The notes beneath the pieces are model-generated. The model was not told where the DNA came from. It searched no databases and worked only from the letters and a program-made list of their open reading frames with translations. From sequence record PX645697.1: a stretch of 64,000 nt of DNA. The stretch is one strand, 5' to 3'. How positions within the stretch are numbered: position 1 is the first letter of the stretch; each line of letters begins with the position of its first letter. A program made the position numbers and the translations under genes. Shown here in pieces: positions 7,002 to 53,642 of the stretch. Origin of the DNA: a phage.

Positions 7002-8036
7002 ATGGCATATGGAATATGGACAAGCCCGGTCGGTCCGGGTCCAGCGGCACCTGCTGACATTTACATTGACAGTGGTAGCACTTTCCCTCAACTCAGAAAT
7101 AGAGTCAGTGGGAATTTCTCTTTTAGCGGAAATACCTGTGACTTGCCTATAAGCGGTTGGGATGGTAGCGGTCAGATAGTTGTAGTCCCAACAGGGTCTG
7201 TTGTTTGGGAGAGATACATACCTCCTAATGTAACATCTGATGTGTATTGGCTAACGGATATATCTGTTATTAATAACTCAACCTTCAGAGTTACTATGGA
7301 CTATAACGTAAACGGTTGGGTATTTGATATGGCTTTTAATGTATATCAAATATGGCCTAGAGCTAATAGGAACTATGGAATCACATTCTCCAACTCTGCT
7401 GACTATTTCTCAATCTCTGATTCTGGAGTTGTTGGTCAATGTATTTGGGCTTGGGAAGGTGACATAAATGGCTCTCTTCAAATACCAGATATTGGAGGTT
7501 TTGATATGAGTCGAGCAACTGTCTATGCAAATTGGAGTAACGGCGGAGCAGGGCTACTATACAACCCATCTAATAGGGTTGTTTATGTGTACCAGAACAG
7601 ATCTCATGATAATGGTAACACAAATCAAACAGGGTACATTGGTGGTGTTAGGATTGCCGTATTCTGTGATGGTTCGGGAGTACCAACCCACAATGGAGGT
7701 TTAAATATCTTTTCTCCAAATGGGTCTCAGTGTGTTTTTTCTACATATAGAACCCCTTTTAGTGTTGAGGGATTTATGCCTATGAGTGGTGGTAACACAT
7801 CTTTGGCCTATCCAATGATACCTCTATCTTATGGTGCTGGAGCAATAAGAGGTAAGGCTAGTGGTTGGTATTTTCAACACACAAGATCTCACATGATGAA
7901 TGGCTCTTCTTTTGGTACAGGTTTCGGAAGGATGATTTACTCTTGGAGTAGTCAATATGATTTAGGAGGGGGTGGTGCCCTCGGGTTAAGTATTCCAATA
8001 TTAGATGCTAGAAAGATATTCAGGAGTATACAATAA
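7002..8036 (+). CDS. hypothetical structural protein
   Basis: Track ORF, tightly packed in structural operon; Gly/Ser/Asn-rich. Confidence 0.4.
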   Translation: MAYGIWTSPVGPGPAAPADIYIDSGSTFPQLRNRVSGNFSFSGNTCDLPISGWDGSGQIVVVPTGSVVWERYIPPNVTSDVYWLTDISVINNSTFRVTMDYNVNGWVFDMAFNVYQIWPRANRNYGITFSNSADYFSISDSGVVGQCIWAWEGDINGSLQIPDIGGFDMSRATVYANWSNGGAGLLYNPSNRVVYVYQNRSHDNGNTNQTGYIGGVRIAVFCDGSGVPTHNGGLNIFSPNGSQCVFSTYRTPFSVEGFMPMSGGNTSLAYPMIPLSYGAGAIRGKASGWYFQHTRSHMMNGSSFGTGFGRMIYSWSSQYDLGGGGALGLSIPILDARKIFRSIQ

Positions 8037-19555: not shown

Positions 19556-21041
<1,486 letters not shown>

Positions 21042-21594: not shown

Positions 21595-22341
21595 TTAGAA
21601 TGGGCTATCGTTGTCGTCTTCGTAAGTAGAAGCAGGCTCTTTATCAATCGTAGGGATTGAAGGAGTAGCTTCTTTCTGCTCTGTTTCAGAAGCACGAGTA
21701 ATTTCACGACCAGCCAGAGGCATGTTCTTAGCGTCATTAGCTTGAGTAAGCAGGTTGCGCTGGAACGGGAACATCAGTTGATAGGATGCTACGTTCTCAT
21801 CGGTTTCAGCATACGGTTCGAAGAATACCAGAGGACTACGAGCTTCACCAACTGCTGCACGATATTTAGTTGGGATTGGAGAAATGGTCTTGATGGAGTT
21901 TTTAACTTCACCAGCTTTGTTAGTGTAAGAGTTAACCAGAATGTTAACAGGCTGGCCTAACAGAACATCCTTGAACCAAGACAGATCACCTTTCAGCGCT
22001 TGAATACTTGGGTCAATCATCTTGCAAAGATCAAGAATACCAGAGTTCTTAGCTCGTGGGTTTACATCATAGCTCTTGAACTGGCAAGCCGGACGTGGTT
22101 CTAATGCCTTACCATCGGAATCTTTACCAGTAGCATCAACACCAATCAGCTCGAAAGCTAAATCCATACGGAAAGCCGGACTCTTAGGAGTTACTGCTTT
22201 GGTCTTCGGGTCAATCCAAGGATCACGATTGTGAACACCCAAACCTACTACACGAACAATACGTGCTTCGTATTCACCATCAGGGATTACATCGTAGTTG
22301 GATTTACGGGAAGCAGTTGCGATAGTTGGAATCATAGACAT
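21595..22341 (-). CDS. single-stranded DNA-binding protein candidate (T7 gp2.5-like)
   Basis: Size about 248 aa and acidic C-terminal tail ending in Phe (...YEDDNDSPF), as in gp2.5-type SSBs; own promoter motif and terminator. Confidence 0.4.
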   Translation of the reverse strand: MSMIPTIATASRKSNYDVIPDGEYEARIVRVVGLGVHNRDPWIDPKTKAVTPKSPAFRMDLAFELIGVDATGKDSDGKALEPRPACQFKSYDVNPRAKNSGILDLCKMIDPSIQALKGDLSWFKDVLLGQPVNILVNSYTNKAGEVKNSIKTISPIPTKYRAAVGEARSPLVFFEPYAETDENVASYQLMFPFQRNLLTQANDAKNMPLAGREITRASETEQKEATPSIPTIDKEPASTYEDDNDSPF

Positions 22342-22400
22342 ATTGTAATTTCCTTATTTAATTTGAAAGATTGTTGCTCTCTTTGAGCGGTTATGTATAG

Positions 22401-22409
22401 TATACATTA
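22401..22409 (-). promoter_or_regulatory. TAATGTATA motif (minus strand) upstream of SSB-like gene
   Basis: Exact 9-mer 59 nt upstream of ATG 22341; part of a palindromic TATGTATA-G-TATACATA arrangement. Confidence 0.35.
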
Positions 22410-22472
22410 CGCTTATACCGATAAGAGTACTATATAATATAAGTATCTTTGGTAGTAGATATAACACATTAG

Positions 22473-22481
22473 TAATGTATA
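22473..22481 (+). promoter_or_regulatory. TAATGTATA motif (plus strand) in large intergenic region
   Basis: Exact 9-mer pointing into a 270-bp stretch without ORFs. Confidence 0.25.
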
Positions 22482-22577
22482 TATTGTATAGCTGATAAAG
22501 TTATTGCAGGCTTGTATATTGGGCAATTCACAGAATCCCTTGCAAGTACCGAAGGGCAGGAGCCACCTGCGAGATAA

Positions 22578-22643
22578 AAATAGAGAATTAAGGAATCCTT
22601 GATTTAGGTTGTAGGGACTCCTAGGGACTTTGATTCTCTATTT
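22578..22643. repeat. 11-bp perfect inverted repeat (AAATAGAGAAT / ATTCTCTATTT) flanking a 44-nt loop that contains tandem TAGGGACT copies
   Basis: Read directly from sequence; located in the 416-bp intergenic region 22342-22757. Confidence 0.5.
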
Positions 22644-22757
22644 AAAAGAATATTAATTACTTATTACCTAAATAATTAACTAACTTACTTAAACCAAATT
22701 CAAGAATAATAGATAAAAAGATTATTCCTAAGAAAGCTAAAAAGTAAATAATATAAG

Positions 22758-23006
22758 TTACCATTCAAGTAAACCTTTAAAGTTAGTTTGTTCTACTATC
22801 CTCTGATAACGAAGATTAGAATCAGCTTGTTTCTTTAACATCTCATTATATTGATCTCTGATAGAGTCTTTATGTACTACAGGTTCTTTAAATAATGAGA
22901 TCTTGTTCTTTTCTTCTTTCATCAAAAACCTTCCTAATCTCTTGCAGAGAAACAGCTTTATAATCAATTTGCTCCATTGATGTACAGAAATATCTCCAAT
23001 CATCAA
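22758..23006 (-). CDS. hypothetical protein (5' end uncertain)
   Basis: Track ORF; upstream part overlaps phosphoesterase gene, true start probably internal. Confidence 0.3.
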   Translation of the reverse strand: MMIGDISVHQWSKLIIKLFLCKRLGRFLMKEEKNKISLFKEPVVHKDSIRDQYNEMLKKQADSNLRYQRIVEQTNFKGLLEW

Positions 23007-23391
23007 TTACATGATTATGTGTATGAGCATAAATATTAAACCTTCCTCTCATCTCATCAGTGTGAATAGGAATATGAGTTACCCAAAACTCTTTGTACTT
23101 ATAATCACCAGAGATTCTACGGAAGACTTTCATCATATCAGGGAGAAGTTCTAACCTGTCATGGTTTCCTAAAACTAGATGCTTCTCTCCTTTTACTTCA
23201 GCGATGATATCAAGGGCATACTTTTCAAACACCCAGTCACCAGTAAAGAAGATTTTATCTCGCTTAGTTACATGATCAAATGCAGCTAGAATTGCTTTGT
23301 CATGTTCTTCGATGGTTTTAAATTGCTTACGAAAACTACAGATGTTGCGATGACCTAAGTGACCATCCCCTGCAAAATAAACTTCAGCCAT
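22888..23391 (-). CDS. calcineurin-like metallophosphoesterase
   Basis: GDGHLG ... FFTGDWV ... LVLGNHD ... HTHNH motifs. Confidence 0.6.
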   Translation of the reverse strand: MAEVYFAGDGHLGHRNICSFRKQFKTIEEHDKAILAAFDHVTKRDKIFFTGDWVFEKYALDIIAEVKGEKHLVLGNHDRLELLPDMMKVFRRISGDYKYKEFWVTHIPIHTDEMRGRFNIYAHTHNHVIDDWRYFCTSMEQIDYKAVSLQEIRKVFDERRKEQDLII

Positions 23392-53543: not shown

Positions 53544-53642
53544 CTCTCATTCAATTTGGCGCACCGTGGAGGATTCTAACCTCCAACCAATTTCTTAGAA
53601 GGAAACTGCTCTATACAATTGAGCTAACGGCGCTGGATTTGT

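Follow-up and report, generated by a model that had tools for sequence, protein, structure and literature searches.

The 64,000-nucleotide stretch of phage record PX645697.1 analyzed here (hereafter the window) raises the question of what resides in the long spacer between its gene 40 homologue and the next gene on the minus strand. The original prediction, made from the nucleotide sequence, described this spacer as a 416-bp AT-rich intergenic region with divergent promoter-like motifs and short repeats, next to an SSB-like gene, and proposed that it holds either a small structured RNA or a replication origin. We favor, with a probability of roughly 0.55, the reading that a non-coding RNA of ~156 nt is made here in the middle phase of infection from an orphan promoter of the P68 type, and that this RNA is modular, with a swappable arm; the simpler claim, production of a non-coding transcript from the plus strand, deserves greater confidence. 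Judged from the comparison of related phages, the locus is a real one, beyond chance, of which half is a published promoter and half a new candidate for a phage small RNA or an origin transcript.

The 2 kb surrounding the spacer share 95-99% identity with dozens of Escherichia phages of the genus Kuravirus (phiEco32-like, Gordonclarkvirinae), the closest match being phage MN03 (98.8%), and this similarity assigns the window to a Kuravirus coliphage. The spacer is shorter than it had been taken to be, since a 35-amino-acid open reading frame (ORF) on the minus strand at 22657-22764, a homologue of phi32_41, had been overlooked. It therefore measures 315 bp (22342-22656) rather than 416 bp, and the plus-strand stretch without an ORF, given as 270 bp, is actually ~175 bp long. 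Its description as AT-rich is right for the flanks (15-30% GC) and not for the body at 22505-22640, which forms an island of 40-52% GC with more G than C. The positions of all the features discussed below are collected in Table 1.

Phages of the phiEco32 type have no RNA polymerase of their own, and their middle and late genes are read by the host core polymerase together with the phage sigma factor gp36, aided by gp79. The hallmark of a gp36 promoter is a tAATGTAtA element lying ~6-8 nt upstream of the start, and six such promoters are listed for phiEco32, namely P6, P13, P26, P40, P58 and P68 (Table S3, PMC8948821). Both of the divergent promoter-like motifs fit into this scheme: one is the published P40 and the other a complete P68-type promoter pointing away from gene 40. 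For P40, the minus strand of 22371-22411 is letter-for-letter identical to the SU10 promoter placed "between CDS37 and CDS38" (Table S2), and the numbering of the P68 structure puts its predicted start at ~22394. The palindromic motif pair reported at 22392-22409, one arm of which had been misread as ending in ACATA, is in fact TATGTATA-G-TATACATT, with 10-nt arms that are 90% complementary. Relatives keep only its minus-strand half (TAATGTATA, 22409-22401), so the palindrome is not a feature, and an operator at this place was rejected because conservation is limited to that half.

The second promoter reads TTGGTAGTAGATAT-aacacattag-TAATGTATATA on the plus strand and contains the TAATGTATA that had been correctly placed at 22473-22481. 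Its twin P68, the best studied of the phage's middle promoters, lies in the window on the minus strand at 34399-34364 and reads TTGGTAGTAGATAT-gatcactctc-AAATGTATATA; the two sites belong to the same phage group and share the 14-nt upstream element, the 10-nt spacer and the core AATGTATATA. The open complex formed on P68 has been solved by cryo-electron microscopy (cryo-EM; NAR 2025, PMC12276001), and in it the C-terminal domain of gp36 contacts G-37 and A-34, and the N-terminal domain A-14, A-13, T-12 and G-11; mutations of these contacted bases abolish or strongly reduce transcription (PMC12276001). All six contacted bases are identical in the new site and stand at the corresponding positions. 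The two differ at position -15, which is A in P68 and T in the new promoter, and in what lies ahead of them: P68 is followed by gene 68, with a ribosome-binding site 40 nt downstream, whereas the new promoter faces the opposite way and has no gene ahead.

Exact copies of TAATGTATA number five in the window where 0.70 are expected, a count reached in none of 100 shuffles; apart from the new site, three are published promoters and one lies inside a gene. The sequence GGTAGTAGATA is found in the 64 kb at only two sites, the new promoter and P68, and the 14-nt upstream element likewise has just two places in the window. Moreover, of the five phiEco32-like genomes of IMG/VR that are complete or nearly so, four have exactly two occurrences of the composite promoter pattern, at P68 and at the new site on opposite strands, and the fifth has a variant upstream box at the new site, so that only its P68 copy matches. 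Across 20 distinct variants of the locus both boxes are kept (the -10 element is at least 90% conserved), while the 10 nt between them vary freely in sequence and keep their length to within one nucleotide, as would be expected if the promoter works; the diverged group of contigs L056-L060 and L066 has a spacing shorter by 1 nt. The site appears in neither of the two published tables of gp36 promoters (SU10 Table S2; Table S3 of PMC8948821), and as far as the accessible literature shows it would be an unreported seventh gp36 promoter, a paralogue of P68.

Some further boxes of this kind were recorded. The intragenic TAATGTATA lies at 7337-7345 on the plus strand, within a 344-amino-acid ORF of the late region (7002-8036); it is unpublished, has no upstream element of the P68 type, and may be an internal late promoter or have arisen simply by chance. 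Four contigs (L056, L058, L060 and L066) carry, ~27 nt upstream of the -10 element and just 5' of the -35 element, another -10-like box on the plus strand, CATGTATATA, which could be a tandem promoter. In addition, the records of myPSH1131 (L015, ~467-650), ES17 and the EcM-vB1 type have an insertion of ~146 bp between P40 and the plus-strand promoter, and these records also have replaced flanks and a slightly modified upstream box (TGGTAGTATATC).

From the predicted start at A22488 (P68 numbering) to the end of the inverted repeat, the RNA would measure ~156 nt, or ~180 nt in phages with a longer arm, and no reading frame is conserved over this length. Comparison with relatives speaks for the proposed small structured RNA, in that a hairpin with compensatory changes stands at the predicted +1, the pair closing the variable arm covaries, and invariant G.U pairs are found on the plus strand only. 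In the 5'-terminal hairpin P1 all the cells of the alignment are paired (100%), and three of the five pairs are changed on both sides; its two sides are for example AUAGCU/AGCUAU, AUAGUU/AACUAU, AUAGA/UCUAU, AGAGUU/AACUCU, ACAUC/GAUGU or ACAGU/ACUGU in other phages. The closing pair of the arm is G-C in 11 sequences, C-G in 6 and U-A in 3, followed by a pair that is always G-C, and an inner stem in the arm that we call type b alternates between CUG/CAG, CCG/CGG and CCUG/CAGG around a conserved loop. Of the cells examined 95% pair, a share that falls to 31-50% once the partners are shifted by 1-3 columns. The position of the arm itself is occupied by at least four unrelated sequences of 33-68 nt, in combinations that cross genera and therefore point to recombination.

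The part of the predicted RNA beyond the arm behaves differently, being 90-97% identical where the DNA of gene 40 is only 80-83% identical, and it is present as a single copy in the window (nhmmer E 4e-31). It ends in the large hairpin P4, at the base of which lies the perfect 11-nt inverted repeat of the original prediction (22578-22588 and 22633-22643); the repeat is present as described and extends to 14 nt at 93% complementarity. The two TAGGGACT copies reported between its arms are likewise there, at 22612-22619 and 22622-22629, 10 nt apart, and are the only ones in 64 kb. In phages of the ECBP2 type the copies read GAGGACU and UAGGACU and are spaced 9 nt apart, owing to deletions of 2 nt and 1 nt that fall in a predicted loop and bulge. 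For the small hairpin P3, the counts cannot separate it from an alternative helix UGCA/UGCR.

Three features point to the plus strand as that of the element, namely the promoter, the hairpin that starts at the +1, and the G.U pairs. Two G.U pairs are invariant in P4, P1 has a G.U in 5 of 20 sequences, and one A-U pair of P4 has become G.U in phage XT32; read on the minus strand, each of these would turn into an A.C mismatch. Consistent with this, the predicted folding energy of the plus-strand P4 is -23.5 kcal/mol, and in each of the 23 variants tested the plus strand gives the more stable fold.

Table 1. Positions of the predicted promoters, RNA parts and neighboring genes in the window.
Feature	Position	Strand	Remarks
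-35 / upstream element of the new promoter, TTGGTAGTAGATAT	22449-22462	+	G-37 = 22451, A-34 = 22454; 14-mer and distance as in P68
-10 element of the new promoter, TAATGTATATA	22473-22483	+	exact match; A-14, A-13, T-12, G-11 = 22474-22477
P1, 5'-terminal hairpin AUAGCU-GAUAA-AGUUAU	22488-22504	+	starts at the predicted +1 in every variant
Linker UGCA	22505-22508	+	invariant
Variable arm	22509-22550	+	first and last bases pair
Conserved 3' domain	22551-22643	+	GAAGGG, P3, GAGAUAA, P4
P3 hairpin GCAGG-AGCCA-CCUGC	22556-22570	+	
P4, 66-nt hairpin	22578-22643	+	inverted repeat at its base; 16 continuous pairs including two invariant G.U
Tandem TAGGGACT	22612-22629	+	first copy in the P4 apical loop; second in the apical stem (CCUA) and in a helix with UCC(U)
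P40 -10 element, TAATGTATA	22401-22409	-	published gp36-dependent middle promoter of gene 40; conserved in relatives
Gene 40 mRNA leader hairpin GCUC-AAAGA-GAGC	22374-22386	-	9 nt downstream of the predicted P40 start; folded
Gene 40 homologue (phi32_40), the "SSB-like gene"	21595-22341	-	predicted OB-fold protein, acidic C-terminal tail ending ...DSPF
phi32_41 homologue, 35-amino-acid hydrophobic ORF	22657-22764	-	PHROG 24970, E 1.7e-24; annotated in relatives; outside the element
Phage sigma factor gp36, 215-amino-acid ORF	19935-20582		
Metallophosphoesterase gene	22888-23391		

The element is widespread among close relatives. Each of the 99 phiEco32-like records of the phage collection with a match to the 2-kb region has one to the spacer as well, and the candidate RNA is present in every genome examined of Kuravirus, Suseptimavirus and Nieuwekanaalvirus, as well as in metagenome contigs. 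A more diverged version occurs in the Logan/ENA contigs L056-L060, at 71% identity of the gene 40 product. The element is absent from 7-11, GAP52 and several contigs at 63-70% identity of the gene 40 product, which have short spacers (~145 bp in the contigs). Relatives without it (L030-L032 and L063) have another spacer in common, likewise conserved and ~145 bp long, in which GCTAAGCT / AGCTAGC motifs recur and a TAATGGATA-like box points toward gene 40. The Logan contigs L055 and L062 keep the promoter boxes, and their two independent assemblies end within the element, 20-60 nt past the promoter, which would fit mixed populations differing in the variable arm. Together with L066, discussed below, these two indicate that the orphan promoter is somewhat more widespread than the RNA body.

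The comparison shows how the promoter is built, that the region is conserved and covaries, and that it lacks a coding signal; from this we infer transcription, the 3' end and the function of the RNA as follows. The spacer would hold two gp36 promoters placed back to back, of which P40 drives gene 40 and the other has no gene ahead. In the middle phase, the host core RNA polymerase with gp36 and the activator gp79 would start at A22488 and produce an RNA consisting, from 5' to 3', of a terminal hairpin, the UGCA linker, an exchangeable arm with a conserved closing helix, a purine-rich GAAGGG with a small hairpin, and the 66-nt terminal hairpin that carries the TAGGGACT copies. P1 and P4 would protect the two ends, and the 3' end itself could arise by weak termination, by trimming back to the hairpin or by read-through. 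For the near-invariant 3' domain the most likely role is to bind a partner that is the same throughout these phages, be it a host or phage protein or an RNA; the arm would be free for swapping.

Several observations weigh against this reading. The case for transcription of the region is a purely comparative one, and the shuffle z-scores of the two strands are alike (about -2 to -3). P3 and P4 never vary, the variation being confined to P1, the base of P2 and one arm stem; the invariance of P3 and P4 therefore gives no covariation evidence either way. No intrinsic terminator was found on the plus strand, where the hairpin is followed by no U-tract (the tail is UUUAAAAG, or UUAAAAUC in the ECBP2 type) and a consensus scan was negative. 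The contig L033 from metagenome ERZ1034915 reads TAATATATATA, with the contacted G-11 changed to A, which is either a natural promoter-down variant or a sequencing error. L066, at 68% identity, keeps P40 and the divergent orphan promoter and has a different, A/U-only hairpin downstream, and three relatives at a similar distance are without the element altogether. BLAST against E. coli genomes gave no match to the RNA, and the search for trans targets within the phage returned only chance 9-11-mers. Finally, the absence of the new promoter from the published tables leaves an earlier mention in the primary phiEco32 papers (Pavlova 2012, Savalia 2008) possible.

Database searches were equally negative. 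With Rfam 15, used at gathering and permissive thresholds on the window and on the loci with a type-b arm, the region and the type-b loci gave best E values of 0.6-8, far below the thresholds; the sole hit in the window to pass the RNA-family or tRNA thresholds is a tRNA-Arg at 53557-53633, and a tRNA/tmRNA scan found none in the spacer. A pattern scan of representative genomes from 185,579 bacterial and archaeal species gave 0 matches, which, with the result for E. coli, indicates that the RNA is not borrowed from the host. The accessible literature on phiEco32-like phages, taken without the primary phiEco32 papers, mentions no RNA or origin at this spacer. A role as a CsrA sponge was rejected, as the four GGA motifs in the RNA are not above chance expectation.

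The alternative that survives best, unlikely as we consider it, is a transcription-activated replication origin, in which the transcript of the orphan middle promoter stays hybridized or primes T7-like replication proteins, the G-rich folded RNA aiding an R-loop and the very AT-rich DNA at 22640-22760 unwinding. It was kept as a rival because an orphan promoter beside a replication-type gene has the layout of T7 and T4 origins, and because L066 keeps the promoter without the RNA body. The promoter is indeed of the middle class, that of the replication phase, and adjoins a gene for a predicted OB-fold, SSB-like protein; the RNA body has more G than C (skew ~+0.3), and a stretch of 15-18% GC lies beyond the hairpin. 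In L066 the A/U-only sequence follows the promoter directly, and L055 and L062 retain the promoter boxes in contigs that end before the sequence downstream. Set against this, the 15-18% GC DNA starts only after the GC-richer body of 155 nt, whereas in an origin of the T7/T4 type AT-rich DNA follows the promoter directly, and in the ECBP2/Paul-type phages the AT-rich stretch is only ~35 bp long. Such an origin also has no need of a compensatory hairpin at the 5' end or of a near-invariant 3' domain. The origin part of the original prediction found no specific support. The GC skew has no inflection here and turns only near 17.5 kb, a weak test, uninformative because the skew follows gene orientation. 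There is no iteron array, and the TAGGGACT copies were rejected as iterons of an origin, being two short 8-mers with a spacing that changes from 10 to 9 nt in relatives.

The next alternative, which we think quite unlikely, keeps only cis elements of the minus-strand operons: P4 with its T-run would be a terminator or 3'-end stabilizer of the upstream middle operon, the rest would be regulatory DNA upstream of P40, and the plus-strand promoter would be weak or fire against read-through, its RNA being a by-product or an antisense of the 3' untranslated region (UTR), like lambda OOP. In its favor, the T-run UAUUUUUAUCU is present and invariant, and follows the hairpin on the minus strand and not on the plus strand. 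The position of the element is constant as well, with P40 on one side and the end of the operon upstream on the other, and P3 and P4 are without covariation. Within the favored reading too, the hairpin, read from the other strand and followed by the T-run, probably doubles as the end of that operon, terminating its transcription. As the sole function of the element this explains less, however. On the minus strand the two invariant G.U pairs of P4 turn into C.A mismatches, leaving an A/U-rich stem of 11 bp with a 44-nt loop at -18.2 kcal/mol, a structure that was not called by the terminator scan and is not annotated in the record of WFI101126. Moreover, a terminator leaves unexplained the boxes of the P68 type, the hairpin at the plus-strand +1 and the covarying helix that closes the arm, and the loop sequence is conserved beyond the neighboring coding DNA. 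Antisense action of the OOP type on a coding region was also looked for: the conserved unit ends at 22643-22646, 11-14 nt short of the stop codon of the convergent 35-amino-acid ORF (22657), and so does not overlap it.

Finally, a small plus-strand protein gene giving ...KGR(S/R)HLRDKNRELRNP is highly improbable and was rejected for want of a conserved start codon, ribosome-binding site or frame: an open frame of 21-32 codons does run over 22504-22602 and has counterparts in several variants, but most variants have no ATG, the UUG starts differ and no Shine-Dalgarno sequence is present, in phages of the SU7 and ECBP2 types one-base indels alter the frame, the N-terminal part is swapped together with the arm, and conservation extends 55 nt beyond the only shared stop codon.

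The genes around the spacer add some context. Naming the neighboring gene SSB-like is plausible from its predicted OB fold, for which the SSB-like PrgE is the nearest structure, and from the acidic tail of its product; the name is not established, as gene 40 has no sequence match in Pfam or the PDB. An acidic tail with a terminal phenylalanine recalls gp2.5 of T7. Gene 40 and seven homologues (8 of 8 tested) match the NCBIfam model NF046043, "phage replication initiation protein, NGO0469 family", with E values of 2e-5 to 1.5e-7 that lie below the model cut-off. The family name traces to a weak similarity noted in 2007, and the label may misname an SSB-like family. A single-sequence AlphaFold model of the product was useless (pLDDT 37). 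In the leader of the gene 40 mRNA, the block containing the hairpin is invariant among close relatives, and in distant relatives without the RNA element the stem is altered yet still paired (GUUCA/UGAAC, GUCC/GGAC, ACUCA/UGAGU, GUCCU/AGGAC). This hairpin could be a 5' stabilizer or an operator for autoregulation of the OB-fold protein; a match of the leader to the Rfam family "DUF2815 RNA" is not significant (E 7.8).

Just 3' of gene 40, a gene for an HNH homing endonuclease is found in WFI101126 (L001, 1592-2005), SU10, Ptacy1532 and FH3, and is lacking in the window. On the other side of the spacer, the very hydrophobic phi32_41 homologue occurs in some phiEco32-like phages and is missing from those of the ECBP2/Paul type, which nevertheless keep the element; in these phages the phosphoesterase gene follows ~35 bp beyond it.

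What the favored non-coding RNA would mean follows from the place of phiEco32 as a model for the re-programming of host RNA polymerase by a phage sigma factor, gp36, with its co-factor gp79. The six gp36 promoters in the two published tables all stand ahead of genes, and a seventh, twin to the one seen by cryo-EM and with no gene ahead, would add a non-coding output to this program. Many of the phages carrying the candidate RNA are under development for therapy. Should the RNA prime replication, it would mark where the origin of this phage group lies; should it act as a regulator or decoy, the swappable arm would make it an unusual case of modular evolution in a phage RNA. A bolder proposal, which we hold to be doubtful as a whole, is that every phiEco32-like phage encodes a modular non-coding RNA of a class not seen before, made with the phage's own sigma factor and built of an invariant 3' domain and a cassette arm, which primes or licenses replication beside the OB-fold gene or titrates a host factor and whose arm is tuned by recombination between phages.

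Three kinds of known systems invite comparison. The OOP RNA of phage lambda, 77 nt long and ended by a canonical terminator, overlaps the coding region of cII and destabilizes the cII mRNA. The candidate RNA resembles it in being a short transcript of an orphan phage promoter that runs against the neighboring operon, has a hairpin at its end and is located next to replication genes. It would be about twice as long, overlaps a 3' UTR only, has a swappable arm and lacks a U-tract on the plus strand.

In T7 the primary origin consists of the promoters 1.1A and 1.1B with an AT-rich region, and in T4 ori(uvsY) and ori(34) combine a middle promoter with an unwinding element. Shared with the present locus are a phage promoter of the replication phase, a transcript that need not code, AT-rich DNA further on and replication proteins like those of T7. 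These origins require no conserved RNA fold, however, whereas here ~155 nt that are predicted to fold, covary and are partly invariant precede the AT-rich DNA.

Virulent phages are also known to produce small RNAs, the bands C and D of T4 being stable phage RNAs. Another case is Pseudomonas phage PA5oct, with four non-coding RNAs found by transcriptomics (PMC7318152). The present candidate shows no sequence or Rfam relationship to such RNAs, and it is set apart by its definition through comparison of genomes and by its predicted dependence on the phage sigma factor. What it would share with them is that they are non-coding, encoded by virulent phages and mostly of unknown function.

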